DNA of 64,000 bases from a phage. Location: the sequence record NC_094493.1, one strand, 5' to 3'. This document shows positions 30,783 through 55,290 of the stretch, in pieces (the stretch's first letter is position 1; each line of letters opens with the position of its first letter). Below the pieces are notes generated by a model. That model worked only from the letters and a program-made list of their open reading frames with translations, was not told the origin of the DNA and searched no databases. The translations under genes were made by a program, and so were the position numbers.

Positions 30783-33206
30783 ATGAGTATGTGGTCTTTC
30801 GATCTGGAGGCCTCCGGGCTTTTGGAAGATCTAGATCTTTATTATCACTGCGGTCTGTTTAAAGAGCTGAATAAGAACCGTTTTATGCTGTTCCTTCCTC
30901 TAAATGACCGCACACACTACTCCGAGGAGGATATAGAGAAGGCTAAGAACTTTATTCTGGCAAAGAAAACTCTTTATAAAGATTTTGAAGTTCGCATAGC
31001 AGATTTTTCGGAGTTGGAAGGTTGGCTTACAGGCAATTCCGACTGGTCACCAACAGCTTTGAACTGCCATAACTGCTACAGTTATGACTTTATGCTGATG
31101 GAAAGATTATCCGGTATTCATTTTGACATGTTCCGTGATCCTAAATGCATGGGTACTATCAACGACCACCAGGTTAACCTGTTTGATACGTTGGCGATGA
31201 GTCGAATCTTGTGGCCTGATCGCCCTTTACCAAAAGGTTGTCCGGACTCTGTATTCAACCCGGTCACTAAGAAAATGCAGCCTGTTGGTCCTCACGGCCT
31301 TATGGCATGGGGCTATGCTCTTGGTAACCAGAAAGTTCAAATTGATGACTGGCGCGATCTTCCGTTGTGGAAGTATGTGGATCGTGTATTTGAGGACGTT
31401 ATCATCCAGGAGCTGCTCTGGAAAGAACTGGTAGCGGAATCAAAAGGTGTATTCTACGGCAAGTCTGACATGCAGAACTTTATGTACGATCCTGCCAAAG
31501 AGAAGCCGAAAGGGTTCAAGAAGATCACCTGGAAGAACGCATTACGCCGAGGCATGCTGCAGCACTTCCTGATGGAGCTGCAGGCCCGTCAGGGTGTGTA
31601 TTTCGACATAGATGGAGCTATTGCTTTACGTGACCGTTGCGATGCGTGGATGAAAGAAATCGCTGATCGTGTTGAACCACAACTGCCTTTAAAAGAGCTG
31701 TCAATGTCTCAGCGGCCCAAGTTCCCTGAAAAGCCGTTTAACCAAGACGGGACAATCTCTAATAATGGTTGGAAATGGTTAAAAGATAAGCTTGGCTATC
31801 CTGTAGACATGAGCGCTCTAGAGTTCAAAGCCCCGCCTAAGAGAGCATTTACCTCCACAGGAGATGTCAGTAAGATGGGGATAAAATGGTGTGAAGAGAT
31901 GGGCTGCAAAGACCCCGATAAGATGGCTGATTTCTTGAGAGGCTATATTAAGGGCACCTCAACACCACAACCTTTACCTAAAGAGCTAATGGATCAGGCA
32001 ATAAGCGATCTGCAGCAGAAGCGAATGCCTGACTGCAAGATACCTATGAAAATCAGCAATCAGGACGACATTAAGCGATACCTGATCAGTGCTGGTTGGC
32101 TTCCGACAATGTGGAGAACTAAGGATGTAACTAAAGACAGCAAGAAGAAAGCTCTACCTGATGCAGATGTTGATGCACGAGTATATGCATACATGGACGA
32201 GCTTTTAGAGTCAGAGTATTGTGACCTAATTATCAACTTCTGGAACAAAACTGATGCTAAGTTTCAGACAACAGTGCACAAGTTCCGAAGCTTTCCTAAC
32301 TCCGAAAGGATTAAAAAGGAAGTATTCGGGAAAATACGTAGAAAAGCTAGGGCACTTATTACTTCTCCGCAACTGAAAGATACGTTTGGACACCTATGTC
32401 CGAATCTTGAAAAATTGAACGGAGAGATGGCTAAGGATATCGTCTTGTGGTTATCCTTGCGAAACCGCAGATCGGTCCTTGATCCAATCAAGGAGGATAA
32501 GGTTGATACTGGTCTTCTTAATCACCCACGCTTGAAGATTGACCATAAGCTTCCTGCTAAAAGCTCCGGATTAACAAACACTTCCAGACAGAAACACAGC
32601 ATTTGTGCAAACATGCCTAAACCCTCTCCTAAAGTGGTTATGGGTAAGGAGATGCGTAGCTTGTGGGGTGTTCCTCCTGGATACTTTGAGATCGGTATTG
32701 ACGGGTCCAACTTAGAGCAGCTTATCGGGGCTTGGGGTGCCTTTGAGTTCGACAACGGCTTGTATTATGATGTTGTAAGTAACGGGGACGCACACCAAAA
32801 CAATGCTGAGGCATATACAAAAGTAGCAGGCAGAGAGGTGTCTCGTAACGACGGTAAACCTATCACGTATGGGGTTATGTACGGGGCACAAAAAGATAAA
32901 GTTGCAGATATGCTGGACATCTCTCCAGAGTTGGGACAAAGGGTAATCGATGCACTCTGGGATGCCAACCCTGGTCTTAAGGGGCGCAAAGAGGATCTGG
33001 AGAAATTCTGGGAAGCAACAGGTAAGAAGTTTATCTACTCTTTTGATGGTCATGCTATCTGGACCCGATCTAAACACTCTTTACTTAATGCATACCAACA
33101 GAATGGTGGTGCATCGCTGTGTGACTTGGTTGGGATACTTATGCACCACCAAATGGTGAAGCGTGGGTGGTACGATGAAGGTGTTCGTCGTATTATTTAT
33201 TACCAT
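30783..33206 (+). CDS. family A (T7-like) DNA polymerase, exon 1
   Basis: 3'-5' exonuclease Exo I FDLEASG; motif A IDGSNLEQL; motif B RNDGKPITYGVMYGAQ; reading frame stops 1 codon after ...IIYYH, exactly where motif C (HDE) should continue. Confidence 0.85.
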
Positions 33207-33482
33207 AAATAACATTGTGGCTTCATAGAGTAATCTATGTCGAATAACCTCTTTAACTGCGGGAAGCCTAAACCTTATGGCAAGGTAATCCGCAACGAAG
33301 CGCTCAAAAGAGCGAACGCTCAGAGGCCATTCCGAAAGGAAGTAGACCAGCAAGTGCGGTCGAAATGGGAGGATTCCTGTGGTTGCTTATCATAGGAATA
33401 TGAGATGGTCCGATCCTACGTGAAAACGTATGGCTATGCACGTAATGGTGCGGGGTAGCTTAACGACCTACCTGAACTATTG
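33207..33482 (+). ncRNA. putative group I self-splicing intron (no ORF) interrupting the DNA polymerase
   Basis: 276 nt between ...YYH and DEYQLQV...; 5' exon ends in U and intervening sequence ends in G; P-like AACTGCGGGAAG (33255), Q-like AATCCGCAACG (33287), R-like GTAGACCAG (33342) and S-like GAGATGGTCC (33402) elements; candidate guide GTGG at 33217. Confidence 0.7.
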
Positions 33483-41777: not shown

Positions 41778-42088
41778 TACTTGAAAATTCCTGGCATATC
41801 AAGTATAAGGGGGATTTCTAAAATGGATTTCCTCCTTTTGATATTTCACCGGGCCGGATATTTTAAAATTCTTAGAAAATCAGAAAATGGATCGAAAACT
41901 AAAATGGATTTTTCAGAGTAGGCGCGACAAGCTGAATAACTCATCCTATCGTTTGCACCATATTCCAGGCCACCATTATAGATTTCCCACACATGCTAAC
42001 CTCCCTCTACTAGAACTTCCTCCACTTACCCTTGACCTTCTATGGTAACAATCTAACCACTATCTTGAAGTTGCGGTGCAGCTTTCCA

Positions 42089-42270
42089 GGTACTCGATCT
42101 ACTTTTCATTTCAGGGCTTGGATTTTCTGAAAATTTTTCTCGATAAATTTCTCAGTACTCGATCTGTTTTTCGTTTTCTGAATCGGATTTTCTGGAAATC
42201 GTTCCGGCTCTCGACCTGAAATTTTTGGGGACGAAATCGATTTTTCGTTTTCAGAAATGGATTTTTAAAA
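42089..42270. repeat. iteron-like imperfect tandem repeats in a 1-kb non-coding gap
   Basis: GTACTCGATCT at 42089 and 42155; GGATTTTCTG(A/G)AAAT at 42118 and 42185; TTTTCGTTTTC at 42160 and 42243; AAATGGATTT four times between 41821 and 42266; unit about 66 nt. Confidence 0.5.
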
Positions 42271-42412
42271 TTTCTATATGGGAATATTTTAGTGGATACT
42301 ATTTTATAGGAAATTGTTACGGAGGGTAATTAGCGTGCTAATTAAATTTATTAAATGCGAGGAGTTCTCATTTAGAATTTTGAATGATAATCATTCTCGT
42401 TTGCAGAATAAC

Positions 42413-42436
42413 GGGCAGGCCCGGTGATTGTCTCCC
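42413..42436. repeat. 24-nt motif GGGCAGGCCCGGTGATTGTCTCCC (copy A)
   Basis: Direct variant CCGGTGGTTGTCTCCC at 42556; inverted 23/24 copy at 51506..51529. Confidence 0.5.
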
Positions 42437-42796
42437 GGCCCCTACTGCCCCGGCTTGTTATTATAGTAACACACAGGACAAAGAAAGCAAGAAGTTTTTG
42501 CATAAATTTTTAGACGATAATGATAATCGTTCTCATTTCATGCAGCGCCCATCCCCGGTGGTTGTCTCCCCCGTCACCGGTGCCTGCCGTCCTTTCGATA
42601 GGTATATTTTGCCACCTGGCGGGGCCGCTGTCAACACTTTTCAAAAAAAAAAAATTCTAACCTGATGCGCTGACCGCTGCAACCTGGCGGGGCCAGCCTG
42701 GCAGGGCCTAACTGACCAGGTAGGAGAGAATGAAGGCTTGCAAACCTGGTGGGCCTATGCTATAGGATAGGTAACAATTGAAGAGGAGGTACAAAA

Positions 42797-42973
42797 ATGG
42801 AAGGTAATATGATCCCCCTGGAAAATGTAGCTATTAATGACGCTGAGGCTATCGCCCTGGTTGAAAAGGCTATGGCGGGAGCGTTGGAACATAAAGAAGA
42901 GTACGAAAAAATGATGGTTAACCTGGCAGGGGCGGCGGCTGGAGAATTCTACCCAAAAAATAATTTTAACTAA
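42797..42973 (+). CDS. hypothetical small protein (58 aa)
   Basis: ATG after GAGGAGG RBS; absent from the ORF track (under 60 aa). Confidence 0.5.
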   Translation: MEGNMIPLENVAINDAEAIALVEKAMAGALEHKEEYEKMMVNLAGAAAGEFYPKNNFN

Positions 42974-42976
42974 TGG

Positions 42977-43005
42977 TTGACAGCTCGGACAGTTCTTGTT
43001 ATTCT
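42977..43005 (+). promoter_or_regulatory. sigma70-type early promoter
   Basis: TTGACA, 17-nt spacer, TATTCT. Confidence 0.5.
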
Positions 43006-43058
43006 TATCCTCGCAAGGTGAACAACACCACACCAATTAACAGAGAGGATAAAAAATC

Positions 43059-43256
43059 ATGAACGCCTACGGAATTAAAGTACGTCGCAACACTCGCCAG
43101 GTGGTCACCAATCAAGTGATTTGCCGGGTGGATGTAACCATCAACAACGGGCAAGGCCTTTATAAATTTCGTCGCGGTCATAGCTATACCCTGCAACAGC
43201 TTAACCGTTGCGCCCTGACAAAAGGTCAGATCAACCACTGGTTTAATAAAAAATAA
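43059..43256 (+). CDS. hypothetical basic protein (65 aa)
   Basis: ATG after AGAGAGGA RBS; K/R-rich. Confidence 0.55.
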   Translation: MNAYGIKVRRNTRQVVTNQVICRVDVTINNGQGLYKFRRGHSYTLQQLNRCALTKGQINHWFNKK

Positions 43257-43258
43257 TG

Positions 43259-43287
43259 TTGACATATGGTCTGACACAAAATACACT
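43259..43287 (+). promoter_or_regulatory. sigma70-type early promoter
   Basis: TTGACA, 17-nt spacer, TACACT. Confidence 0.55.
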
Positions 43288-43319
43288 GAAATCGCAAAAG
43301 ACACTAAGAGGATAAAATC

Positions 43320-43718
43320 ATGAAAACCACTACCTTTAATTTTGATAATGCGGACTTTTCTTTTTCTGATGTCAAGAACTGCCGCCGTGATCGTGGATTT
43401 TACAAGTCTTATAATCTGGTGGGCCTGGACGATGACAATAATTTGCACGAAGTAGCTGAGATCCGGTATTATGCCGCCGCCAGTGGTAACACTCACTACT
43501 GCGTGTTTTGGATTCACGACAACAAGAACAATAAGTACGGTTATACTGGCGGCAAGGCGAGCGGTCACGGTTACGATAAAGCTAACGCAGCACTTGAGAG
43601 TGCATTAAATGCTATGGAGATCACTGCCGACGGCTGGATCTACGAAGAAGAGTTTTTGTCGGCACTTGCTGACCACCTGGGCTATAAAAAGCACATTGTG
43701 ACATGCGCCCACGAATAA
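43320..43718 (+). CDS. hypothetical protein (132 aa)
   Basis: ATG after AAGAGGA RBS. Confidence 0.6.
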   Translation: MKTTTFNFDNADFSFSDVKNCRRDRGFYKSYNLVGLDDDNNLHEVAEIRYYAAASGNTHYCVFWIHDNKNNKYGYTGGKASGHGYDKANAALESALNAMEITADGWIYEEEFLSALADHLGYKKHIVTCAHE

Positions 43719-43724
43719 AAATCA

Positions 43725-43752
43725 TTGACACGCTGCAAAATTTAAGTAAACT
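43725..43752 (+). promoter_or_regulatory. sigma70-type early promoter with 5'-UTR hairpin
   Basis: TTGACA, 16-nt spacer, TAAACT; then GGCGGGAAtgttTCCCGCC hairpin and AAAGGA RBS. Confidence 0.55.
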
Positions 43753-43800
43753 AGACACAAAAGGCGGGAATGTTTCCCGCCAGCACAAAGGAAAAAGATC

Positions 43801-44205
43801 ATGAATAAGAACGTACGCCGCATCATGAACGAACTGGCAAACGATGAAAAAATTATTGACATGCACTTAGTGAACATTTGCCGCCGTTGTGTAACCTATA
43901 ACAACCGCGCCGCAAAAGCGCGTGAGATGAACGCAAAAGGCACCTTAAAGCCCTTCCAGGTGGTGGTAAAGGCCATTAAAGATGTAGCTAATACGGCAAA
44001 CCAGGTACAGGGGAACACCAACGAGAGTACCAATATTGATCCGGCTTACATCATGAAACGGATCCGGACCTGCAAGAACAAAGAGCAAGTGTATAACGTC
44101 ATAGACTGGTTGGATTCCATGGGCGACGTGGTTTATAATAGGTTTTCTGCAGCCATTGAGATCCAGCTAGACAGGTTGGACGGGAAAGTACTAAAAACTT
44201 ATTGA
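43801..44205 (+). CDS. hypothetical protein (134 aa)
   Basis: ATG after AAAGGAAAAAG. Confidence 0.6.
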   Translation: MNKNVRRIMNELANDEKIIDMHLVNICRRCVTYNNRAAKAREMNAKGTLKPFQVVVKAIKDVANTANQVQGNTNESTNIDPAYIMKRIRTCKNKEQVYNVIDWLDSMGDVVYNRFSAAIEIQLDRLDGKVLKTY

Positions 44206-44206
44206 G

Positions 44207-44253
44207 TTTATTTTTAGATGGCCTTGACTCCAGGGCCATCGATAAAGTAAACT
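44207..44253 (+). promoter_or_regulatory. repeated palindrome-bearing promoter element, copy 1
   Basis: TTATTTTTAGATGGCCTTGACTCCAGGGCCATCGATAAAGTAAACT: GATGGCC/GGCCATC inverted repeat brackets TTGACT; TAAACT 18 nt downstream. Confidence 0.55.
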
Positions 44254-44285
44254 AATCTCAGTTAAGCGAAAAAGGGGGCTTTAAG

Positions 44286-44405
44286 ATGGGCACTACACGC
44301 CAATACACAAAGGTAACTATTATCGTCTGCGTTGTCGGTTACATCCTGGCGCAAATGTTAATGAGTAGCGCTAACAGTTTTGCAAAATTTTTCTTAAATT
44401 TTTAA
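44286..44405 (+). CDS. putative small membrane peptide (39 aa)
   Basis: ATG after AAAGGGGG RBS; hydrophobic core VTIIVCVVGYILAQ; downstream of repeat copy 1. Confidence 0.35.
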   Translation: MGTTRQYTKVTIIVCVVGYILAQMLMSSANSFAKFFLNF

Positions 44406-44433
44406 TTGACAAGCTAACTTAGATCGGTATACT
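44406..44433 (+). promoter_or_regulatory. sigma70-type early promoter with 5'-UTR hairpin
   Basis: TTGACA, 16-nt spacer, TATACT; then GGGAAAACTTCCC hairpin and AAGGAGAAAA RBS. Confidence 0.65.
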
Positions 44434-44484
44434 TAAACCCGTAAACGGGAAAACTTCCCAGAACACACAAAAGGAGAAAACACC

Positions 44485-44826
44485 ATGACCACTATGACCG
44501 CCGCAGAAAAAGCTATTCAGGTTGCCGCACTGAAAAAACAGATCGCAGACCTTGAGAACAAGATCGATACCTTTGAAATCGACGAGGACAAGTACGACGA
44601 AAACTATGATGAATGGTTAGACGAGATCTACGGCGAAATCATGATCGGAAACATTTCTTTTCTTCCGTCGCGTATCCTCAAGGAGCTAGATCCTATCGCT
44701 TACCGCTGCGGATTTAGCGACTACATCGACAGCCTGGATATTGAGGACGATGAAGAATACCAGGAATTACAGACAGAGTTAGAAGAAGCAAAAGAAGAGC
44801 TTGCGGAGCTGGAAGAAAACGAGTAA
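44485..44826 (+). CDS. hypothetical acidic coiled-coil protein (113 aa)
   Basis: ATG after AAAGGAGAAAA; E/D-rich. Confidence 0.6.
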   Translation: MTTMTAAEKAIQVAALKKQIADLENKIDTFEIDEDKYDENYDEWLDEIYGEIMIGNISFLPSRILKELDPIAYRCGFSDYIDSLDIEDDEEYQELQTELEEAKEELAELEENE

Positions 44827-44828
44827 GA

Positions 44829-44875
44829 TTATTTTTAGATGGCCTTGACTCCAGGGCCATCAATAAAGTAAACTT
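44829..44875 (+). promoter_or_regulatory. repeated palindrome-bearing promoter element, copy 2
   Basis: Near-identical to copy 1 (ATTATTTTTAGATGGCCTTGACTCCAGGGCCATCAATAAAGTAAACT). Confidence 0.55.
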
Positions 44876-44915
44876 TATACTGTTAACACTGAACTAATGC
44901 ATAGGAGTTAAAACC

Positions 44916-45161
44916 ATGGCAGCACTAATCACCAAATATTATGCCCCTACCAACACCAAAAGCGCCCGTATCATGGTAAAAGGCTTCGGACGTAAAAAGG
45001 TTTACACCTGGGATTATGCCTTAGACACGGAAGACAACTACACCAACGCGATGACAGATTTTATTAATGAGCTGAACACGCGGATCTTGACAAATTATAA
45101 AATTACCGATATTGCCTATATAGGGGAAGGCGGGATCTGTTTTGTCGGTATCGTCAAATAA
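44916..45161 (+). CDS. hypothetical protein (81 aa)
   Basis: ATG after TAGGAG RBS. Confidence 0.55.
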   Translation: MAALITKYYAPTNTKSARIMVKGFGRKKVYTWDYALDTEDNYTNAMTDFINELNTRILTNYKITDIAYIGEGGICFVGIVK

Positions 45162-45165
45162 ACTG

Positions 45166-45212
45166 TTTTTTCGGTGGTCCTGGTAGCAGGGCCATCTATA
45201 AAGATAGTTTAT
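45166..45212 (+). promoter_or_regulatory. degenerate copy of the palindrome-bearing element
   Basis: GGTGGTCCTGGTAGCAGGGCCATCTATAAAGATAGTTTATC shares the GGGCCATC(G/T)ATAAAG core. Confidence 0.35.
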
Positions 45213-45236
45213 CAATACAATGAAAGGAGAAAGTAC

Positions 45237-45590
45237 ATGATCAGCGGGGCAAGTTTTATTATTGGCGCTATTGCTACGGCTTTAATTGTAAACAAGATCC
45301 AATCTAAAAATGAAAAAGAGAGCAACGCGCTCACAGAATACCCATTTTGGGTATTCAACGACAATGAAGACTACATTATCAAGTACAAGAATGAGAAGGG
45401 CGACCAGGTAACACCGCGACCGATCCCAGCTTACAAGATGCAAGAAACACTATACCGCCTAAAGGCTGGAGGCGCAAAAATCGTAGACTTTTGGGGATAT
45501 GATTGCAAGGATCAGGAGGTTATAAAGCGCCGTATCCGGGCTATTCAGGCCAATATTGAAGTTAGCAAGGGGGGAATATATGAAGATTAA
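45237..45590 (+). CDS. hypothetical protein with N-terminal transmembrane helix
   Basis: ATG after AAAGGAGA RBS; ISGASFIIGAIATALIVN hydrophobic N-terminus. Confidence 0.55.
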   Translation: MISGASFIIGAIATALIVNKIQSKNEKESNALTEYPFWVFNDNEDYIIKYKNEKGDQVTPRPIPAYKMQETLYRLKAGGAKIVDFWGYDCKDQEVIKRRIRAIQANIEVSKGGIYED

Positions 45591-45777
45591 TTTTGAGAAG
45601 ATTGTAAAGCGATCTCATGATTCCAAAGAGCTGCCGGAACGACGCCAGCGCAACAATAAACTGAATAAGCCAAAAAGATTTGGGAAGATCTGGCGGAATC
45701 ATTATGATCGTAAATTGCCGGGCCTACTTTTGGAACGTGAACGACAGGCGGAACGATACCGCCACAAAGGCAAATAA
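45580..45777 (+). CDS. hypothetical basic protein
   Basis: ATG after AAGGGGGG; K/R-rich; overlaps upstream stop. Confidence 0.45.
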   Translation: MKINFEKIVKRSHDSKELPERRQRNNKLNKPKRFGKIWRNHYDRKLPGLLLERERQAERYRHKGK

Positions 45778-45785
45778 CAACCAAC

Positions 45786-45812
45786 GCCCCGCCATTGTGC
45801 GGGGCTTTTTTA
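45786..45812 (+). terminator. intrinsic terminator
   Basis: GCCCCGCcattgtGCGGGGC followed by TTTTTTATTT. Confidence 0.7.
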
Positions 45813-45959
45813 TTTCTATCCTACGAATAGCGCCCCTGGTTGGCCCTGTAAACGCCATAAAAGCCCCTACCTATGCAATCCCCTTTCTTAACCTGAAAAC
45901 AGCGTCTAGGGCCGTTTTATGGCGTTAAAAATGTTATTGACAGTGATTTTATTTAAAGC

Positions 45960-45988
45960 TTGACACCTTGGAATAGTCCGGATATACT
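45960..45988 (+). promoter_or_regulatory. sigma70-type early promoter
   Basis: TTGACA, 17-nt spacer, TATACT; second TTGACA 23 nt upstream. Confidence 0.65.
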
Positions 45989-46023
45989 GACCACATCAAA
46001 GCAAGAAGGAAGGAGTAAACGCC

Positions 46024-46284
46024 ATGCGTAAATTGAAAAATTTTGATAAGGTAGATGTAGTACTGAATAATTTTTACTACTGCAATAATAAAGCCGTTTG
46101 GTGGCGTGATAGTTCCACCGATAAAGTTAAGGCGCGCTTTCTCCAAGGGCACTGGCAAGGCCGTCCAGTGATTAAAATCATGGGGCAATTGGTAGCGTTT
46201 AAAAATTGCCGCCGTGTTGATGACGTTGAAGAGATTTTAAGCATTTTGCGCCACAATAATTTAAAAAATAGTGTTGACAAGTAA
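46024..46284 (+). CDS. hypothetical protein (86 aa)
   Basis: ATG after GAAGGAAGGAG RBS. Confidence 0.6.
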   Translation: MRKLKNFDKVDVVLNNFYYCNNKAVWWRDSSTDKVKARFLQGHWQGRPVIKIMGQLVAFKNCRRVDDVEEILSILRHNNLKNSVDK

Positions 46285-46301
46285 ATCTCGATAAGTATAC
46301 T
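46274..46301 (+). promoter_or_regulatory. sigma70-type early promoter with 5'-UTR hairpin
   Basis: TTGACA, 16-nt spacer, TATACT; then GGCGGGAAAACTTCCCGCC hairpin. Confidence 0.65.
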
Positions 46302-46358
46302 TAAACACACAGGCGGGAAAACTTCCCGCCACTAACAAAGAAAATAGGAGAAAATATC

Positions 46359-46982
46359 ATGACCACCGTTAACATTACCACAGGTTACAATTTATCTTTC
46401 GACGTGCTGACCGATGAACAAAAAGAAAAAGCTATTGAAATGGTCCGCGAAAGAGAAGAACACAGCGGGGATAACTTTTTTGCAGAAAGTGTAATTGAAG
46501 ACTATAAAGAACATATCTTTCCAGAGTATGGCCTTGAAGATACCAAGGTACATTGGTCCGGCTTTTGGTGCCAGGGCGACGGCGCGTCAATCAGTGCGGA
46601 AAACGTGGATTTAGAAAAATTCTTGCGTAAAGTCAAGTCTCTGACTAAATTCCGCTCAATTCGTCACTTGTTCGGCACAATGCACGATGGCGAGCTATCC
46701 GCAAGTGTTGAGCGTGATCCATATAGCCGCTATAGTCACGAAAACACTGTAAGCGGGTACATCGATACTACATGGCTAGACCTGACAGCCAAGCAAGAAA
46801 GTAAGGTTGAAGAGCTGGAAGAGCTGATCACCGAGACGGTACGGGAGCTATCCCGCAAGGTTTATGTAGACCTGGAGGAGGCCTATCTTGAACAGTTTAC
46901 TACCGAAAACCTGATCGGCCTTATTGAAGCCAATGATTGGCGGTTTAATGTGGATGAATATGGGGAGATGAGTTTTTCATAA
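46359..46982 (+). CDS. hypothetical protein (207 aa)
   Basis: ATG after ATAGGAGAAAA RBS; largest early-region ORF. Confidence 0.65.
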   Translation: MTTVNITTGYNLSFDVLTDEQKEKAIEMVREREEHSGDNFFAESVIEDYKEHIFPEYGLEDTKVHWSGFWCQGDGASISAENVDLEKFLRKVKSLTKFRSIRHLFGTMHDGELSASVERDPYSRYSHENTVSGYIDTTWLDLTAKQESKVEELEELITETVRELSRKVYVDLEEAYLEQFTTENLIGLIEANDWRFNVDEYGEMSFS

Positions 46983-46990
46983 ATAAAGTG

Positions 46991-47018
46991 TTGCAATAAT
47001 CTAAAAACCTGCTATATT
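46991..47018 (+). promoter_or_regulatory. sigma70-type early promoter with 5'-UTR hairpin
   Basis: TTGCAA, 16-nt spacer, TATATT; then GGGGCgagatgacttGCCCC hairpin. Confidence 0.55.
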
Positions 47019-47071
47019 AAAACTCAAGGGGCGAGATGACTTGCCCCACACAAAACAAAGAGGAAAACATC

Positions 47072-47452
47072 ATGAAAAACACCACCAAGGCTATTGACAC
47101 CGTTATGTTTAACCTGGTTACATTCCGTGAAGATATGAAAGATCTTCCACGTGAAACTGTGTGCGACCATATCGAAAACTATCGCAAACTAATCAAAGAG
47201 TTGCCTTTAAAACGTGACCAATATGCGGCTAACGCTATGCTTAACGCCATGATCAAAAAGATGATTCAGTGTGATTTAACTCTGGCCTATGATTATGCAG
47301 GTGGTCGTTTTGCAGTATACAATCAGCCCGTGCCTGGTATGAGCACCACCGAAGAATTGCACGCGCTCAATCTAAAACAAGATGTGTGGGATAGTATGCC
47401 CCGCGTGGTGGTATGGGTAGAAAGCGGAAAGATTTACGGCGATAATTTTTAA
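47072..47452 (+). CDS. hypothetical protein
   Basis: ATG after AAAGAGGAAAACATC; ORF-track start 47036 lies inside the 5' hairpin. Confidence 0.6.
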   Translation: MKNTTKAIDTVMFNLVTFREDMKDLPRETVCDHIENYRKLIKELPLKRDQYAANAMLNAMIKKMIQCDLTLAYDYAGGRFAVYNQPVPGMSTTEELHALNLKQDVWDSMPRVVVWVESGKIYGDNF

Positions 47453-47462
47453 TCAGGTAACA

Positions 47463-47490
47463 GGCGGCGGCATATTTGCCGCCTTATTGT
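47463..47490 (+). terminator. intrinsic terminator
   Basis: GGCGGCggcatatttGCCGCC followed by TTATTGTT. Confidence 0.55.
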
Positions 47491-47519
47491 TAATCAGAAC
47501 TGTAAAAGAGGTACATAGA

Positions 47520-47891
47520 ATGGAATTTATTATTTTGGCTATATTAGTTGCCTTGTTTAACGCCTGGATCGCTGGCAAGATGGGCAGATCCGCCTTTTTA
47601 TGGTTTATTATATCTATTTTCCTGGGAGTGGTTGCAACTATTGTATTGGTTATCCTTGCAATTGTTGACAAGGGGAATAATAGAAAGGGTAAAGTATTTT
47701 CAGACCTGTACGACGCTCAAACATTTGTCAACGCCTACTACAGCGATCTTCCAGTCTCCCTACGTTGCAGCCTTGCACAACAGGTTTTCGATGAAGCTAA
47801 AACCAGAGATCACGCCCATGAGATTTGTTTAACTGAGGCGGATCGCCTATTTGAGAGGAATAGAAAATATGTGGACCAGCCGTTTAAATAA
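47520..47891 (+). CDS. hypothetical membrane protein (two predicted TM helices)
   Basis: ATG after AAAGAGG; MEFIILAILVALFNAWIAG and FLWFIISIFLGVVATIVLVILAIV. Confidence 0.55.
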   Translation: MEFIILAILVALFNAWIAGKMGRSAFLWFIISIFLGVVATIVLVILAIVDKGNNRKGKVFSDLYDAQTFVNAYYSDLPVSLRCSLAQQVFDEAKTRDHAHEICLTEADRLFERNRKYVDQPFK

Positions 47892-48090
47892 TGCCACGTT
47901 AATTAATCCCTTTAGTGAAGATTTGAAGCCAGCCGCCTGGCGCGATGGATTCAATAACGAAAGCTTTATTTTCAGGCCTGATCTTAAGGAATTTTATAAC
48001 AATGGATCGAACAACGACAGAGATAATTTTTCTTGTAATGTGCGTGGTGATAATACTCCTGGGGGCCATTGCAAACCACGTCACTGCTAA
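47869..48090 (+). CDS. hypothetical protein
   Basis: ATG after GAGAGGAA; overlaps end of upstream gene; frame choice uncertain. Confidence 0.4.
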   Translation: MWTSRLNNATLINPFSEDLKPAAWRDGFNNESFIFRPDLKEFYNNGSNNDRDNFSCNVRGDNTPGGHCKPRHC

Positions 48091-48110
48091 CAGGAGGGAA
48101 GGGGGAGACG

Positions 48111-48230
48111 ATGACAACCAAGGATAAGCCCCGCACCGATAAGGTGCGCCGTGTTATGGTATGGCTTGAGATCATCGCCCTTGAAATATTGTTAGGCGTA
48201 GGGATGTACTTTATCGCTGTAAGTAACTGA
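48111..48230 (+). CDS. putative small membrane peptide (39 aa)
   Basis: ATG after GGGAAGGGGGAG; hydrophobic WLEIIALEILLGVGMYFIAV. Confidence 0.35.
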   Translation: MTTKDKPRTDKVRRVMVWLEIIALEILLGVGMYFIAVSN

Positions 48231-48234
48231 TAAC

Positions 48235-48265
48235 GGCCCCCAATCCCTGGGGGCTTAACTTTTTC
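48235..48265 (+). terminator. intrinsic terminator
   Basis: GGCCCCCaatccctGGGGGC followed by a T-rich run. Confidence 0.6.
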
Positions 48266-48286
48266 AAAAATTTTTCTTCCCGGGTG

Positions 48287-48315
48287 TTGCAATCCGGTCC
48301 GGAATATGGATAATA
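48287..48315 (+). promoter_or_regulatory. sigma70-type early promoter with 5'-UTR hairpin
   Basis: TTGCAA, 17-nt spacer, ATAATA; then GGGGAgcaaTCCCC hairpin. Confidence 0.5.
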
Positions 48316-48366
48316 ACAATCAACGGGGAGCAATCCCCACCACAAAGACTAGAAAGGAGAAACAAA

Positions 48367-48567
48367 ATGAGCAATAATATCCGCGTTATTAACTTCAAAA
48401 AAGAAGAAAAAATTGCCGTGCTGATTGACGGTCAAGAAATCTTTAAAGGTGATTATGAAGATCATCAAACGGCGATTAGTATCACTCGCGTGATTGGTTA
48501 CCACAATTTTTACCCTCAAGGCGCTGAGGCAGCAGTAAAACGAATTAAAGAGATTGTAGGCCTGTAA
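48367..48567 (+). CDS. hypothetical protein (66 aa)
   Basis: ATG after AAAGGAGAAACAAA. Confidence 0.6.
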   Translation: MSNNIRVINFKKEEKIAVLIDGQEIFKGDYEDHQTAISITRVIGYHNFYPQGAEAAVKRIKEIVGL

Positions 48568-48569
48568 AA

Positions 48570-48616
48570 TTTATTTTTAGATGGCCTTGACTCCAGGGCC
48601 ATCGATAAAGTAAATT
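48570..48616 (+). promoter_or_regulatory. repeated palindrome-bearing promoter element, copy 3
   Basis: TTATTTTTAGATGGCCTTGACTCCAGGGCCATCGATAAAGTAAATT, near-identical to copies at 44207 and 44829. Confidence 0.55.
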
Positions 48617-48658
48617 TAAACCCTGTTAAAATAATCAGTGCAAAAAGGAGTAATGATC

Positions 48659-48958
48659 ATGTTTATCCAGGCTAATAATCTTTATTTCTTTGATGGTCAG
48701 ATCGTAGACGGCGTGGAAGTAGAGATCACTGGGTGCCCCGGTGGTCAGGCTATGATGTTCCGTAATAATGCCTTTGATGATCCCTGTATCCTCCTGGCGA
48801 TGGAAGTTACCAAGCTGGATGATAAGAAAACGCTGATTGACTATTCTATTAAAGATCATCCTGATTATCATATGATTCATGGCGATCTGTGTATCGTTGA
48901 CCGTGACAAGGTGGGCGGCATTGTGATCGCTATTGTGAACGATGTTTTCTCTAAATAA
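48659..48958 (+). CDS. hypothetical protein
   Basis: ATG 8 nt after AGGAG; ORF-track start 48638 is GTG. Confidence 0.6.
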   Translation: MFIQANNLYFFDGQIVDGVEVEITGCPGGQAMMFRNNAFDDPCILLAMEVTKLDDKKTLIDYSIKDHPDYHMIHGDLCIVDRDKVGGIVIAIVNDVFSK

Positions 48959-49016
48959 TTCCGGCAAATGATGCAAAATAAGGCCCCTGGCAGGGCCTGC
49001 AGCGATATAATCACAT

Positions 49017-49050
49017 AAAGGCTATGCGGTTGCATGGCCTTTATTATTTT
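49017..49050 (+). terminator. intrinsic terminator (preceded by a second GC hairpin)
   Basis: AAAGGCtatgcggttgcatgGCCTTT followed by ATTATTTT; AGGCCCctggcaGGGCCT hairpin at 48981. Confidence 0.6.
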
Positions 49051-49098
49051 AGCGTTACAGCTGCCCCCAAGGCGCTTAAAAAATTTTTAAAGAAGTAC

Positions 49099-49127
49099 TT
49101 GCATCAAGTCCTACAATATGGATAATA
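49099..49127 (+). promoter_or_regulatory. sigma70-type early promoter
   Basis: TTGCAT, 17-nt spacer, ATAATA; ATATGGATAATA block shared with the 48287 promoter. Confidence 0.5.
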
Positions 49128-49187
49128 AAGGGTGTCGGGGGGCGGTGAGGCCTCCAATCATTAACCAGATAGATAGGAGTTAAAACC

Positions 49188-49472
49188 ATGGCTATTGTTA
49201 CCGTTGGCGATGTAGTAGAAATGGAAGCCAAATACTTAAAAGCGGGTATGCATATCATACGGAATGATCAAGAATTGTTATTAACCATGGTTGAATATAA
49301 TCCCGGTCAGGATTATCCTAGCGTTGACTACTTTTTCCAGTATGTTGATGAAGAATTAAAAGAGGATGAGGCTTATCAGGGTGAATTTTGTAATTTCTTT
49401 TGCCCTGATGAGGTTGTAAAAGTTATTTATCAACCTGGCGTACCTTTCCCGTTGCACGCCATCAATAAATAA
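49188..49472 (+). CDS. hypothetical protein (94 aa)
   Basis: ATG after TAGGAG RBS. Confidence 0.6.
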   Translation: MAIVTVGDVVEMEAKYLKAGMHIIRNDQELLLTMVEYNPGQDYPSVDYFFQYVDEELKEDEAYQGEFCNFFCPDEVVKVIYQPGVPFPLHAINK

Positions 49473-49534
49473 GCCTGGCGGGGCCGAAAAGGCCCCTCCT
49501 GAAATTATGAAAAAATAAAGAGGGGTAAATCATC

Positions 49535-49762
49535 ATGATTGAACAAGTTAAACGCGCCGAGGCTATTAATGGCAATGTGATCTATTTTGTCAGCAAAAAC
49601 GAAAAAGTACCATATGCGGCGGTAATAGTACAGCCTGACGGCAATTATTGGTTTACTGTATACGGATCTTATTCTTTTGGGCGTCCGGTGCATGATAGAA
49701 TTTTGAAAGTAGCGAACCCTACCGGGAAGAATATCACAGCAGAAAAATTTTTTGAAAAATAG
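49535..49762 (+). CDS. hypothetical protein (75 aa)
   Basis: ATG after AGAGGGG; preceded by CCTGGCGGGGCC motif and GGCC...GGCC hairpin. Confidence 0.55.
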   Translation: MIEQVKRAEAINGNVIYFVSKNEKVPYAAVIVQPDGNYWFTVYGSYSFGRPVHDRILKVANPTGKNITAEKFFEK

Positions 49763-49793
49763 TTGACATGACCGTATAAGACTGTAGTATATA
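49763..49793 (+). promoter_or_regulatory. sigma70-type early promoter with 5'-UTR hairpin
   Basis: TTGACA, 17-19-nt spacer, TATA-rich -10 (GTATATA); then GGGGGCaaGCCCC hairpin. Confidence 0.55.
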
Positions 49794-49838
49794 AATCAAA
49801 GGGGGCAAGCCCCACCAACCACAAAGAGGATAAAAACC

Positions 49839-50018
49839 ATGGCTATTATTGCAAAGACCGAGATTGTAGGGTTAGATTCTATTCTCCTGGCATATGAGGA
49901 AGCTATAGAAATGTATGTGGTTTCCTACGGTGAATATATCCGTGAATATAAATCTGTTGATCTAGCTTTTGAATGTTATATTCGCCAGGTCAATAAAGCA
50001 TATGATGATTATCGTTAA
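49839..50018 (+). CDS. hypothetical small protein (59 aa)
   Basis: ATG after AAAGAGGATAAAAACC; absent from the ORF track (under 60 aa). Confidence 0.5.
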   Translation: MAIIAKTEIVGLDSILLAYEEAIEMYVVSYGEYIREYKSVDLAFECYIRQVNKAYDDYR

Positions 50019-50024
50019 AATAGT

Positions 50025-50052
50025 TTGACAACAATTATAAATCGGGTAGAAT
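50025..50052 (+). promoter_or_regulatory. sigma70-type early promoter with 5'-UTR hairpin
   Basis: TTGACA, 16-nt spacer, TAGAAT; then GCGGCAatgaTGCCGC hairpin. Confidence 0.6.
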
Positions 50053-50103
50053 GTATTTCGTAGGGCGGCAATGATGCCGCTCACAACTAGAAGAGGGGTC
50101 ATC

Positions 50104-50298
50104 ATGGCGCTTAAAAAACTAACAAGCAATACTCGTTGGGATGAAATCGACGGGGAAGTTTACATTTTCGCCCGTAAACCAGGGGATCAAAAATGGTCAA
50201 AGGCTTTTACTTGCCACCCTGCAACAATAGACCTGATAAAAAGGGAAGGTCTACGTGAAGCAGTATCAAGAAGCCTACTGATCCCTTGTAAAAAATAG
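50104..50298 (+). CDS. hypothetical protein
   Basis: ATG after GAAGAGGGG; ORF-track start 50071 lies within the 5' hairpin. Confidence 0.55.
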   Translation: MALKKLTSNTRWDEIDGEVYIFARKPGDQKWSKAFTCHPATIDLIKREGLREAVSRSLLIPCKK

Positions 50299-50327
50299 TT
50301 GGACAATACGCGGTTACCTGGTAAAGT
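50299..50327 (+). promoter_or_regulatory. weak sigma70-type promoter
   Basis: TTGGAC, 17-nt spacer, TAAAGT; then GGGCG...CGCCC hairpin. Confidence 0.4.
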
Positions 50328-50379
50328 GTACGACATAGGGCGGGGCAATAAGGCAACGCCCATTAATGAGGGTGGAATC

Positions 50380-50484
50380 ATGTTAGAGAAAATTTTCACG
50401 GTTGTAGTAGTGGGCCTGGCGTTATCGGTTGGAGTAGTTGCAACTATGGCTAACATGATCCTATCTTCCCACGGTATTGGATAA
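50380..50484 (+). CDS. putative small membrane peptide (34 aa)
   Basis: ATG after GAGGGTGGA; hydrophobic FTVVVVGLALSVGVVATMANMIL. Confidence 0.35.
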   Translation: MLEKIFTVVVVGLALSVGVVATMANMILSSHGIG

Positions 50485-50494
50485 GGTGAATCAA

Positions 50495-50710
50495 ATGATC
50501 ACGAATAAAACAGGTAAAACAGAATTTTTACGCGGCTTGCAGATCGGCAAGCCTGAGATCTGGTATTGCACTAAAACACCACGTGACGAAATGAAAGATT
50601 TTACCGCCACGCTGAAGCGGGTAAAGATATCTATCACGCAGAAAAAAGCCTTGATAGTGGTTGAAGGTGAGATCCCCCAAACCGTTGTTATAGTTGAGCG
50701 TACAGCATAG
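50495..50710 (+). CDS. hypothetical protein
   Basis: ATG after AAGGTG; ORF-track start 50477 is TTG. Confidence 0.5.
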   Translation: MITNKTGKTEFLRGLQIGKPEIWYCTKTPRDEMKDFTATLKRVKISITQKKALIVVEGEIPQTVVIVERTA

Positions 50711-50798
50711 TTTAATTTATAGAGATACCTGAAAATTAACCAATAAAGCATAAACAGGCGGTAACCGCCTTAAACGTAGCAGAAAGAGGATAGACACA

Positions 50799-51083
50799 AT
50801 GAAAAAGATGATCGCAGTGGTTGCCCTGGTTGTTGGACTTAATGCGCCTGTAATGGCTAAAGAGCTGGCAAAAGAGGTTAATCTAACGGATATTCATGCC
50901 GTCAATCAAATCGGGGTTACTTATCGCTTATGCCTTGCCGCTAAAACTTTTAATGACGGCACAACAGAGTACTACGGATTCGAGGGTATCCGGTGCGGTG
51001 AGCTTGCTCGCGACCTTAAGGAAGATCCAGATCTGGAAGATCTACCCATCACCGTAAACGGTAAAGCTTACGTAAACCGTTAA
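50799..51083 (+). CDS. hypothetical secreted protein
   Basis: ATG after AAAGAGGA; signal-peptide-like N-terminus MKKMIAVVALVVGLNAPVMA. Confidence 0.6.
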   Translation: MKKMIAVVALVVGLNAPVMAKELAKEVNLTDIHAVNQIGVTYRLCLAAKTFNDGTTEYYGFEGIRCGELARDLKEDPDLEDLPITVNGKAYVNR

Positions 51084-51085
51084 CC

Positions 51086-51220
51086 ATGAGAAAGATAACC
51101 ATCACCTTGGGGATTGTGGTAGCAATACTGGCGCTCTTTCCCCTTATGGTTAGGTATGTGCTGATCAGTGTTGTCCTGATAGTCAGTGATCTATTGGAAA
51201 CGGTTGGCACCTTGTTTTAA
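51086..51220 (+). CDS. putative small membrane peptide (44 aa)
   Basis: ATG 2 nt after upstream stop; hydrophobic ITLGIVVAILALFPLMVRYVLISVVLIV; not in the ORF track. Confidence 0.3.
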   Translation: MRKITITLGIVVAILALFPLMVRYVLISVVLIVSDLLETVGTLF

Positions 51221-51233
51221 AGAGCGATAAAAA

Positions 51234-51425
51234 ATGAATATCGAACAAGTTAGAAAGGTATTAGCGGTACTGCGTTATCATAATCATAGAAAGGTCATAG
51301 ACGATCCTGATTATGTTGATTCAAGCCTGGAAGAGGATACACTACAAGCCATAAGTAACATGCAAGAATTGCTAAAGCGCATGACAGAGAAAAACCGACC
51401 GGACTACATAGGCGAAAAAATATAA
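51234..51425 (+). CDS. hypothetical protein (63 aa)
   Basis: ATG-initiated ORF followed by a terminator. Confidence 0.5.
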   Translation: MNIEQVRKVLAVLRYHNHRKVIDDPDYVDSSLEEDTLQAISNMQELLKRMTEKNRPDYIGEKI

Positions 51426-51441
51426 TATTTATAAACTACAA

Positions 51442-51469
51442 AACAGGGCTTGCAATGGTCCTGTTTTTT
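51442..51469 (+). terminator. intrinsic terminator
   Basis: ACAGGgcttgcaatggtCCTGT followed by TTTTTTG. Confidence 0.7.
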
Positions 51470-51505
51470 GTTATACTTATTCCACGGCAGGCACCTGGCG
51501 ACGGG

Positions 51506-51529
51506 GGGAGACAATCACCGGGCCTGCCT
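51506..51529. repeat. inverted copy of the 42413 motif (copy B)
   Basis: GGGAGACAATCACCGGGCCTGCCT is the reverse complement (23/24) of 42413..42436; preceded by CACCTGGCGACGGGG, which resembles the CCTGGCGGGGCC motif. Confidence 0.5.
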
Positions 51530-51553
51530 GTCATATAAGAACTATAAAAACCG

Positions 51554-53616: not shown

Positions 53617-55290
53617 TTCTAATAGTTGCCCTGCTTTTATATTATGTCATAGAAACACCCGAAGGGGTGACCAAAGGTCACCTGGCATAGCCAGCGAAAG
53701 ATTATTAACTTGCTAATCGTTATCATGCAAACGAATGGCATGGCTTATAATTTTTGAGCAAATAGTCTATACGTGAACAGTGAGGCATGCAATAGTAACA
53801 ATTGTTATTATATCCAGTGTTTAGTTTGCCCAGTGTGTCACTATTATGTCATATTATGTCACAGTATGTCAGACAAGTTTTTCTCCTCTTTGTCAAGTGC
53901 TGCATGAAAAATTTACAAGCTGGTATGGTAGCATTTTTGCGGTCCTGTTTACATTCAGTAATGTATGTATAATCCTTGTTGTGTGGGCGTTTAGACGTCT
54001 AGACGGTTGGAAGTCCACAGGTCAATATCTAATCTATCGGCTGCTAACTATATCCCACACAAATAGTAAGAAATATGATTGTTATATGCGTAAACAGTAA
54101 CTCATGTTATCAATCCCTGTATGTATCGCCAGTGGTGCGCATAATGGGTATTATGTTAAATTGCCCGTAATGATAATGGTTCTCACAATGATATGTATTC
54201 TCATTCCCCCACACAAAATAGATTGCAAATGTTGTGCCACTATGTGAACGGCCTCACCTATTAATTTGCCTCACTGCCTCGATATTTGAGAATTGTTATA
54301 AGAATGAGAATGATTCCCATTTCGTCCGCCTGGCAGCACTCCTGTAGGACAAGCACAAAATCGTGGCATAGCTGGACCTGTTCAGATATTTCTGGCTGGC
54401 TCTTCAGGTCTGTGTGGGAAAAGCCAACCCCCTCCGGCGGCGGGGAGGGTGTCAATTAAAAAATTTATGGGGTATATGAAGCGCTCTTCAGGTAAGGCAT
54501 GTACTATGGGATGAAACCCTCTTCAGGCAATGATATTTGTGGGTGTGATATTTGCTGGAAAGCCAGATATGACGGGACTCCCGGCGGGGCAGGGGTAGTA
54601 CAGACAGGGAAAATATGGGGATGTAGTTGGGTGAATTGATCGGGCAGGTAGAGTACGGAATATGTTACAAGTATGTTAAATATGGAGGGTGAATATCTGC
54701 AGGATTTGTGTGTAAAATCAAAGACTTAAGTAGTGTTGTGGTATTTTCTATAAATAATTCAAGTTTAATAGGTAATATTTGTCTCTATCCACTTTGTGTG
54801 GTAAACAAATTCAAATGAGATTGGTTTACAAGTGTATACATAATATGCAAATTAAAGATACAAGAAACCCCCCTCCCCCTTCGGCTACCATTCACCTTTT
54901 CCTCTGACTGGTACTTAAACACTTATTCAGACTCTTCAGGTTATCACCCATACACCATATGGCAGTGACTGGTGTCCTCCGGCCCCTCTTTCGTCACCCG
55001 TCCGCTTCGCCATGCTAATGCCATAGCCAAATGTTCGGTTGTTCACCCTGTTCACTCAGGTGTATCTCCATACCCCTTCAAACCGAAGAGAACAGAAAAC
55101 CCGAATTACTCGGTAAAAGAAAAGAGAAGAACTTAATTTTATCAGGATAGGCAAGAATGTCAAGGCATGACTGCTCACTAAACAAGCAAACAGTCATGTG
55201 TGGGAGGTAAGTGATTGTGGTGGTAGGAAATTTAGTTGAAAGATGTGTTATAGGTGCTTCCAGCACTTTAGCCTGGCAGCTAATTGTGTG

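Follow-up and report, generated by a model that had tools for sequence, protein, structure and literature searches.

Introduction

The nutL and nutR (boxB) elements of phage lambda and putL and putR of HK022 are nascent-RNA hairpins with a specific loop, present in a few inverted copies after divergent early promoters. Here, we describe a locus of comparable layout in an rV5-like phage (Vequintavirus), of which we analyzed a 64,000-nt stretch of sequence record NC_094493.1 (hereafter the window, numbered from its first letter). Two inverted copies of a 24-nt motif, at positions 42413 and 51506, bracket a 9-kb block of small early-type genes, and we propose that they belong to a module made up of a promoter, a transcribed hairpin, and sites for the host regulator Fur. 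Like nut and put, the elements are short conserved hairpins, few per genome, that are inverted after divergent early promoters, with at least two copies in promoter orientation, the promoters and their transcription being predicted. Unlike nut and put, they are accompanied by no recognized boxA-like element or N-like protein, are at most candidate antitermination sites, are unrelated in sequence, lie within about 15 nt of the predicted start, are in two of three cases not followed by genes, and are followed by a Fur box.

The Fur consensus of Escherichia coli is the 19-bp sequence GATAATGATAATCATTATC, built of three GATAAT-type hexamers. The sites in the module resemble the Fur boxes of enterobacterial iron regulons in matching this consensus and in forming arrays, as at strongly Fur-controlled promoters; unlike those, they occur in a virulent phage and lie downstream of a promoter and leader, not over the −35 and −10 boxes, and binding to them is predicted. 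Stabilizing 5′ stem-loops, such as those of the ompA leader and the T7 phi10 leader, likewise place a hairpin a few nucleotides from the 5′ end (here a predicted one), a likeness that is closest for the rightward copy, but stabilizers need only a stem, whereas the loop sequence of the module is conserved across genera. PeSLs are cassettes of a sigma70 promoter and a stem-loop that are repeated among the small early ORFans of T4-like phages, the stem-loop often lying between or over the promoter boxes (PMC2839356, PMC4122927). Some early open reading frames (ORFs) of rV5 are annotated as similar to proteins of RB49. The PeSL arrangement is found in a unit at 51440–51477 and in a 49-nt repeat family (both below) but not in the 24-nt motif hairpin, which lies downstream of its promoter and hence in the predicted transcript, keeps its loop across subfamilies, occurs in only three copies, and is coupled to Fur boxes; nor does any PeSL-type deletion or mini-circle evidence involve the motif. 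Literature searches on Fur boxes or noncoding RNAs in these phages found no description, and the module is in our reading an undescribed variant of known phage regulatory cassettes, with no membership of a named family established.

An Inverted Repeat in Noncoding DNA Is Conserved across Phage Genera

The 24-mer GGGCAGGCCCGGTGATTGTCTCCC lies at 42413–42436 on the plus strand and its reverse-complement copy, with 23 of 24 positions matching (one mismatch), at 51506–51529 on the minus strand, as the original prediction had described. Two matches to the 24-mer arose in none of 100 shuffles of the window, well above chance, so the pair is not a chance repeat; the inverted similarity reaches 29 nt (42408–42436 versus 51506–51534, 93% identity). 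A direct variant that had been placed near 42556 is equally real: it is a copy of the 16-mer core CCGGTGGTTGTCTCCC at 42555–42570 with one mismatch, direct relative to the first copy, and the core has three matches in the window versus 0.44 expected. Both outer copies are in noncoding DNA, the left in a gap of about 0.7 kb (42.05–42.8 kb) and the right in one of about 0.2 kb (51.43–51.64 kb). All plausible genes between them are small plus-strand ORFs, and genes of this kind extend as far as about 52.9 kb, which makes it fair to say that the copies bracket most of an early block; the ORFs sampled at the block ends and in the flanks matched only function-less PHROG families.

The 10 kb around the repeat are 92–95% identical to Escherichia phage rV5 and to about 250 other records, mostly Vequintavirus. 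Sensitive BLAST searches further revealed that two noncoding stretches, 42347–42491 and 51437–51528, are kept at 70–88% DNA identity in Phapecoctavirus (Stephanstirmvirinae), Mydovirus, Certrevirus, Seunavirus, a Serratia phage, and an Aeromonas phage. Altogether, the module is kept in at least five genera and two subfamilies, plus the Aeromonas phage and uncultured phages, and the spacing of the left and right loci stays at roughly 6–11 kb, from 6.1 kb in ESCO5 through about 8.9 kb in phAPEC8 and 9.4 kb in ukendt to 10.6 kb in CR3. Scans of metagenomes and of IMG/VR added further lineages; a first IMG/VR scan with a 15-mer core returned nearly all chance matches in unrelated genes and six relevant loci.

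Searches outside these phages point to a phage-specific module. A BLAST search of 42300–42800 against all complete E. coli genomes gave no match, and a pattern of the core plus a Fur box had 16 matches in 185,579 species genomes, 15 of them chance matches and one on a phAPEC8-like contig, beyond which bacterial genomes appear to hold no module. Rfam contains no match to the module: at the gathering threshold, its only match in the window is a group I intron elsewhere (below), and 42000–42850 together with five homologous loci gave weak, chance-level matches even at permissive E-values. About 20 records labeled "Campylobacter phage" (MG065658, MG065654, MG065666, and others; host given as Campylobacter jejuni) are 96–100% identical to this Escherichia-type Vequintavirus region, and their host assignment looks doubtful.

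The Copies Lie Downstream of Divergent Predicted Promoters

Read as its reverse complement, GGGAGACAAUCACCGG, each copy of the 24-mer is preceded, at a distance of 18–30 nt, by the −10 box of a sigma70-type promoter. Of these promoters, two point leftward in the noncoding region at 42.3–42.7 kb (L2 and L1) and one points rightward at 51.45 kb (R), and the copies are inverted because their promoters diverge. The L1 hairpin (42400–42458, minus strand; GGGGCAGUAGGGGCCGGGAGACAAUCACCGGGCCUGCCCGUUAUUC) contains the 24-mer as reverse complement and matches the covariance model described below at 35.6 bits (E = 4e-7); its promoter (42460–42490, minus strand) reads TTGCTT-19-TATAAT and is weak in this phage, and the homologous promoters of other genera read TTGCAA/TTGACA-16/17-TATATT/TATTAT. 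The L2 hairpin (42542–42587, minus strand; GCAGGCACCGGUGACGGGGGAGACAACCACCGGGGAUGGGCGCUGC; fold z of −1.8) holds the direct variant at 42555–42570 and follows a promoter at 42606–42634 (minus strand; TTGACA-17-CAAAAT with TG, a 10/12 match) whose spacer holds the reverse complement of a separate GC-rich motif, CCTGGCGGGGCC.

The R hairpin (51486–51532, plus strand; GGCAGGCACCUGGCGACGGGGGGAGACAAUCACCGGGCCUGCCUGU) holds the inverted copy at 51506–51529, has a folding energy of −23.8 kcal/mol (z of −2.7), and begins 2 nt after the predicted start site, A51484. It is preceded by a terminator hairpin and rightward promoter at 51440–51477 (plus strand), in which the hairpin (51440–51467, then a T run) overlaps TTGCAA-16-TGtTATACT (51450–51477) such that the −35 box sits inside the terminator loop, in the manner of a PeSL. 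The terminator stem has undergone compensatory changes, being ACAGG/CCTGT here, ATAGG/CCTAT in phAPEC8, ACCAGG/CCTGGT in Seunavirus, and AGGGG/CCCCT in CR3.

We compared 28 modules from at least 20 phages, namely those of this window, rV5, other Vequintaviruses, phAPEC8, phiTE, BIS47, EC152, Kashira, KaOmega, CR3, SSE121, and the Aeromonas phage PhAER-3, the right-hand loci of R7, DU_PP_I, EspYZU12, and CR3 itself, and uncultured contigs. Upstream of each of the 28 is a sigma70-like promoter that points the same way, and in 26 of them the −10 end is 18–24 nt from the core. The module promoters look real because their hexamers and spacing persist while the spacer sequences differ.

A Candidate RNA Hairpin with a Near-Invariant Loop

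The order of parts within the unit is a promoter, a GC hairpin with an AGACAAWCACC loop, the sequence GCCYGYYAUUC, and a Fur box. AGACAAWCACC is near-invariant and is followed by six to nine variable bases before GCCYGYYAUUC, and the bases flanking the invariant part vary yet remain complementary. RNAalifold on a plain MAFFT alignment failed, with the left arms misaligned, and we used instead a covariance model of five Certrevirus-type copies with a hand-specified two-helix structure, which picks up L1-type elements at 23 loci in several genera. In the alignment of these 23 loci, 85.5% of the cells are paired versus 36–52% with the partners slid, counts that are inflated because the structural alignment was fitted to the model; the covariation score of 0.200 (0.120 in shuffles) was reached in none of 500 shuffles, and double changes occur at five of the 13 pairs, which suggests moderate covariation of the flanking stems. 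An excess of G.U over A.C cells on the promoter-sense strand (24 to 13) weakly favors an RNA in the promoter sense. Within the Vequintaviruses, the R right arm occurs as three alleles, GCCUGCC, GGUGCCUG, and GUGCCUGC; with a shift of register, each of them can pair with the left arm, ACGGCAGGCACC, which stays the same. Trans-antisense pairing of the left and right RNAs was considered and rejected: all copies run in one sense with respect to their promoters, and only in Vequintavirus is there long identity between them.

Fur Box Matches Follow the Hairpins

Two of the three copies in the window are followed by good matches to the Fur consensus. Fur box 1 (42380–42398; TTGAATGATAATCATTCTC) matches 15 of the 19 positions and begins, in the promoter sense, 35 nt past the L1 core, and Fur box 2 (42516–42534; GATAATGATAATCGTTCTC) matches 17 of 19 and starts 33 nt downstream of the L2 core; the matches include the palindromic core AATGATAATCATT. 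For comparison, when 130-nt windows are drawn at random from this sequence, their best consensus match has a 99th percentile of 14, and the pattern AATGATAATCATTCTC with up to three mismatches has nine matches versus 0.99 expected.

Across genera, the Fur boxes of the modules match 13–17 of the 19 positions and lie at a fixed offset: L1-type modules have them at +29 to +37, and the R modules of Certrevirus and Seunavirus, where a GC-rich insert of about 35 nt displaces the Fur-like box, at +59 to +65. The box at the L1 offset is kept in phAPEC8, phiTE, BIS47, EC152, Kashira, KaOmega, CR3, SSE121, PhAER-3, and uncultured contigs; indeed, all L1-type modules of other genera have one except for a single uncultured contig. 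The first box is often trailed by one to three more at a spacing of about 23–38 nt, with arrays reaching four sites. The boxes do not overlap a conserved −35/−10 pair, the conserved promoter being about 65–70 bp upstream. A second promoter overlapped by Fur (GAGACA-18-TATTCT in the sense direction, TTGAAT-18-CAGAAT in the antisense direction) was rejected, as its key −10 positions vary across genera. With a conserved promoter upstream and no conserved overlapping candidate, we therefore infer that Fur, if it binds these boxes as their sequence predicts, would be placed like a roadblock.

Interpretation and Alternatives

We hypothesize that the three copies are homologous promoter-proximal elements of one module type, in which a sigma70-type early promoter would be followed within about 5–15 nt by a GC-rich stem-loop, then by GCCYGYYAUUC, and then by one or more Fur boxes. 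L2 and L1 would fire leftward, toward the Fur boxes and a set of tandem repeats of about 65 bp, and R would fire rightward just after a terminator and head the transcript of the next genes. The working form would likely be a 5′-terminal hairpin of the nascent RNA, either a leader or a short noncoding RNA, whose loop is specifically recognized, and Fe-Fur bound just downstream would block or attenuate the transcripts and so couple read-through to host iron status. We give a probability of roughly 0.55 to the core reading, in which divergent early promoters make transcripts with a 5′ hairpin and Fur sites follow, and a much lower one to any specific downstream function. Candidate roles are a leader or attenuator RNA, a small RNA, and origin priming; by analogy, the action of the module would come closest to that of a leader RNA of the nut/put type or of a short noncoding RNA from near the promoter, and the left copies may in addition belong to an origin.

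Several observations weigh against this hypothesis. Promoter activity and start sites are predictions, and the L1 promoter of the window is a weak one (8/12). The leftward modules face a gene-free region, opposite to all neighboring genes, with no obvious message for a leader; a terminator and promoter scan of the region found no terminators or genes downstream of them. Only R (z of −2.7) folds clearly more stably than shuffled sequence, L1 (−0.8) and L2 (−1.8) less so, and folding energies do not tell the strands apart. The R- and L2-type copies have a different left arm and misfit the L1-type structure, such that they were read by eye, and the inflation of the pairing counts belongs here as well. 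A Fur box at +50 to +90 is in an unusual place for Fur repression, and the R module of this phage (as of Vequintavirus generally) and of phAPEC8 is without one, having lost it.

The original prediction had offered two explanations of the motif, a binding site for a phage regulator or a recombination site flanking a segment that can invert or be excised. The latter finds a model in Mu Gin/gix, P1 Cin/cix, and Salmonella Hin/hix, where short inverted repeats likewise flank a segment of several kilobases, and the 29-nt inverted identity is well beyond chance; moreover, relatives show cassette-sized insertions and deletions in their early regions, and PeSL promoter/stem-loop cassettes mediate recombination in T4-like phages (PMC2839356), an analogue for homologous shuffling by which the 9-kb block might be inverted or exchanged. 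Unlike in the invertible systems, however, the segment is a whole block of small early-type genes, a serine invertase and a dyad-symmetric crossover site are lacking, and none of the relatives has an inverted variant. Throughout the block, the window is collinear with all 11 related genomes that we read completely, and in each of 67 GenBank records a single same-strand location accounts for at least 80% of the region, so that neither set contains both orientations, and Pfam searches of nine larger ORFs at 43.3–52.8 kb and of a 93-aa ORF at 42384 found no recombinase domain. Concerted evolution of L1 and R looked promising at seven genomes and was non-significant at 12 (the loci of the 11 relatives plus the window), where a four-base dimorphism (GCCU vs. 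GGGU) is concordant in nine genomes versus about seven expected by chance, with Gotham and Phage 203 discordant; in other genera, the runs of identity between the two copies are all short. Promoter direction already explains the inversion, and we consider recombination at these copies extremely improbable. The regulatory idea has fared better, in that conserved modules lie at predicted early promoters with a Fur box beside two of the three window copies and nearly all homologues; what looks different is the kind of site and of regulator, for the motif resembles a transcribed hairpin (covarying stems, invariant loop) and not a duplex operator, and the recognizable regulator is the host's and not the phage's. 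An operator in duplex DNA, bound by a phage or host protein about +20 to +40 from the three early promoters and jointly shutting them off or activating them, would account for a core of 11–13 bp that is almost invariant across genera at a fixed promoter distance, for the unremarkable folding energies of L1 and L2, and for the adjoining site of a DNA-binding host protein, Fur. Such an operator is nevertheless unlikely: the core is not palindromic, PHROG and Pfam scans of the neighboring ORFs revealed no candidate DNA-binding protein, and its flanks vary but stay complementary, through register shifts and G.U pairs that a duplex operator does not need.

Leftward transcription from the left locus appears to be old and conserved and to serve no obvious gene, which therefore keeps an origin and small RNAs under consideration. 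Directly beyond the Fur boxes in the leftward sense lie three AT-rich tandem repeats of about 65 bp (42080–42265) with GATC-containing cores of 47–57 nt, iteron-like and possibly elements of an origin; Seunavirus, Certrevirus, Mydovirus, and a Serratia phage have equivalent repeats, cgatcgagaNcc ... aaaaattttttcg, at this position, and farther left follows the 3′ end of the preceding plus-strand gene block, an order that is kept in other genera. The T7 primary origin consists of tandem promoters and an AT-rich stretch, and T4 oriF and oriG of a promoter and an unwinding element. The left locus may resemble these in having two tandem promoters, an AT-rich segment, and the three GATC-core repeats in a gene-free gap that ends a DNA-metabolism block, an arrangement conserved across genera, and the authors of the rV5 study could not place an origin by skew (PMC3606486). 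The tandem leftward promoters would then make a G-rich RNA, containing the hairpin, that primes or activates initiation in the AT-rich region of Fur boxes and iterons, with R as a secondary site. GC skew merely tracks gene direction, however, R lacks the repeats, no initiator protein has been recognized, and the likeness to T7 and T4 is one of analogy, all of which makes an origin distinctly unlikely. Quite improbable too is that the modules yield short, abundant trans-acting RNAs of about 55–60 nt, ending at an imperfect U-rich tract or at a Fur roadblock, whose loop pairs with or sponges a host or phage target, or that the Fur box arrays titrate Fur as phage DNA accumulates. Promoters that are strong in most genera with no ORF after them, the invariant loop, and UAUUCU right after the basal stem speak for trans-acting RNAs, and the arrays of up to four Fur-like sites for titration; against the RNAs, the scan detected no canonical terminator, we identified no target and no Rfam family, and R is followed by genes.

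Returning to the hairpin with downstream Fur sites, we can offer a broader function only tentatively, as possible rather than probable. The module may be a conserved noncoding RNA/operator switch of virulent enterobacterial myoviruses (Vequintavirinae, Stephanstirmvirinae, and relatives), in which strong early promoters would make the 5′ hairpin RNA with its invariant loop, Fur arrays would gate read-through (at the left locus into the iteron-like repeats, a possible origin), and host iron status would time early transcription or replication; alternatively, the arrays may titrate Fur and derepress host iron uptake for the iron-dependent nucleotide metabolism of the phage. If the Fur boxes are functional, the earliest transcription or the origin of a virulent phage family would be tied to a metal regulator of the host, with bearing on phage performance in iron-poor gut, serum, and plant tissue. 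Phages related to rV5 and phAPEC8 are broad-host-range candidates for therapy and biocontrol whose early regulation is barely characterized, and nearly all genes of the region are without assigned function. The persistence of the module at 70–88% identity while neighboring genes diverged suggests that it is likely important, and its three promoters, one loop, and defined Fur sites offer concrete starting points from which to map early transcription units and, possibly, an origin.

A Separate GC-Rich Motif

The 12-mer CCTGGCGGGGCC occurs exactly at 42615, 42683, and 49474 and with one mismatch at 42697 and 48986, five matches versus 0.07 expected. Its recurrence, noted in the original prediction, is thus genuine over-representation, with coordinates to be corrected by one (from 42616 and 42684) and by six (from 49468); a variant reported at 42738 exists as CCTGGTGGGCC at 42746, and CACCTGGCGACGGGG does lie at 51492. 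The proposed relationship of CCTGGCGGGGCC to the 24-mer was not borne out, the former being a GC block of promoter spacers at 42.6–42.75 kb and an ordinary terminator-like stem at 48986 and 49474. The three copies within 42615–42708 (at 42615, 42683, and 42697), which read CCTGGCGGGGCC or CCTGGCAGGGCC, each come after a TTGCCA or CTGCAA hexamer, that at 42615 forming the spacer of the leftward L2 promoter and those at 42683 and 42697 following CTGCAA. GC-rich spacers of this kind are carried by the TTGCAA/TTGACA-type promoters at 42.6–42.75 kb and are common in the homologous promoters of other genera.

A candidate rightward promoter of the early block lies at 42738–42766 (plus strand; TTGCAA-17-TATAGG with the GC-rich spacer aCCTGGTGGGCC, which the variant at 42746 fills), found by eye and missed by the scan owing to the G at the last −10 base. 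It is a poor candidate for the first early ORF (42797), and look-alikes at 42609 and 42677 have no −10 box, as if they were decayed copies of a promoter.

Other Features of the Region

In other genera, an element of about 95 nt that hardly varies stands where L2 would be; it has a strong promoter of its own and comes after a small minus-strand ORF. Its sequence, CGCCACCCCACGGCGAAAAGGCGGGGCUAACGUACCGGGC...GGUCGGAAGGUGRAUCGCCGGUAG, has pseudoknot potential (CGCC/GGCG and CCCC/GGGG) and no match in Rfam; it lies on the minus strand of our homologous loci as oriented (L004 875–930, L005 880–950, L008 420–500, L002 900–965, and L009–L012).

Two further readings of the left locus were rejected. The 93-aa ORF at 42384–42665 (plus strand), a homologue of rV5 gp193, has its start codon inside Fur box 1 and spans both boxes and the left hairpins; its frame is broken in EdH4, its C-terminus varies with an A run at 42645–42656, and it has no Pfam match and is inconsistently annotated in relatives, and it is probably not a gene. 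A genome terminus at the left locus, raised by records that start there, was set aside, as rV5, phiTE, and PVP-SE1 are reported to be circularly permuted. A 514-bp terminal repeat has been reported for Klebsiella phage KPP-1 (PMC9862379); it maps elsewhere, about 230 bp downstream of the R-module homologue of that phage, and holds Fur-like boxes.

Between 52850 and 54600, about 1.7 kb of noncoding DNA mark the convergence of plus- and minus-strand gene blocks. This region contains further Fur-like boxes (54166–54202 and 54303–54321) and 3.5 tandem copies of the 10-bp TGTCATATTA (53836–53871), and several GenBank records of relatives begin at about window position 54284.

Other repeats lie within and beyond the early block, and early promoters of this phage generally have 5′ stem-loops. 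The 49-nt family (44205–44253, 44826–44874, 45161–45209, and 48568–48616) forms a hairpin, GATGGCC...GGCCATC, with a TTGACT −35 box in the loop, followed by TAAACT; its members are PeSL-like terminator/promoter cassettes between early ORFans. A 66-nt unit of promoter plus leader occurs at 44406–44471 and again at 46274–46339, and repeated early 5′ leaders at 47041, 49807, 51605, and 54204 share TTGCCCCACACAAAA...AGAGGAAA, in which a ribosome-binding site accompanies the 3′ half of a small hairpin. Farther to the left of the motif, the plus-strand block contains a group I catalytic intron (33197–33432, plus strand; Rfam RF00028) that scores 64.7 bits, above the gathering score.

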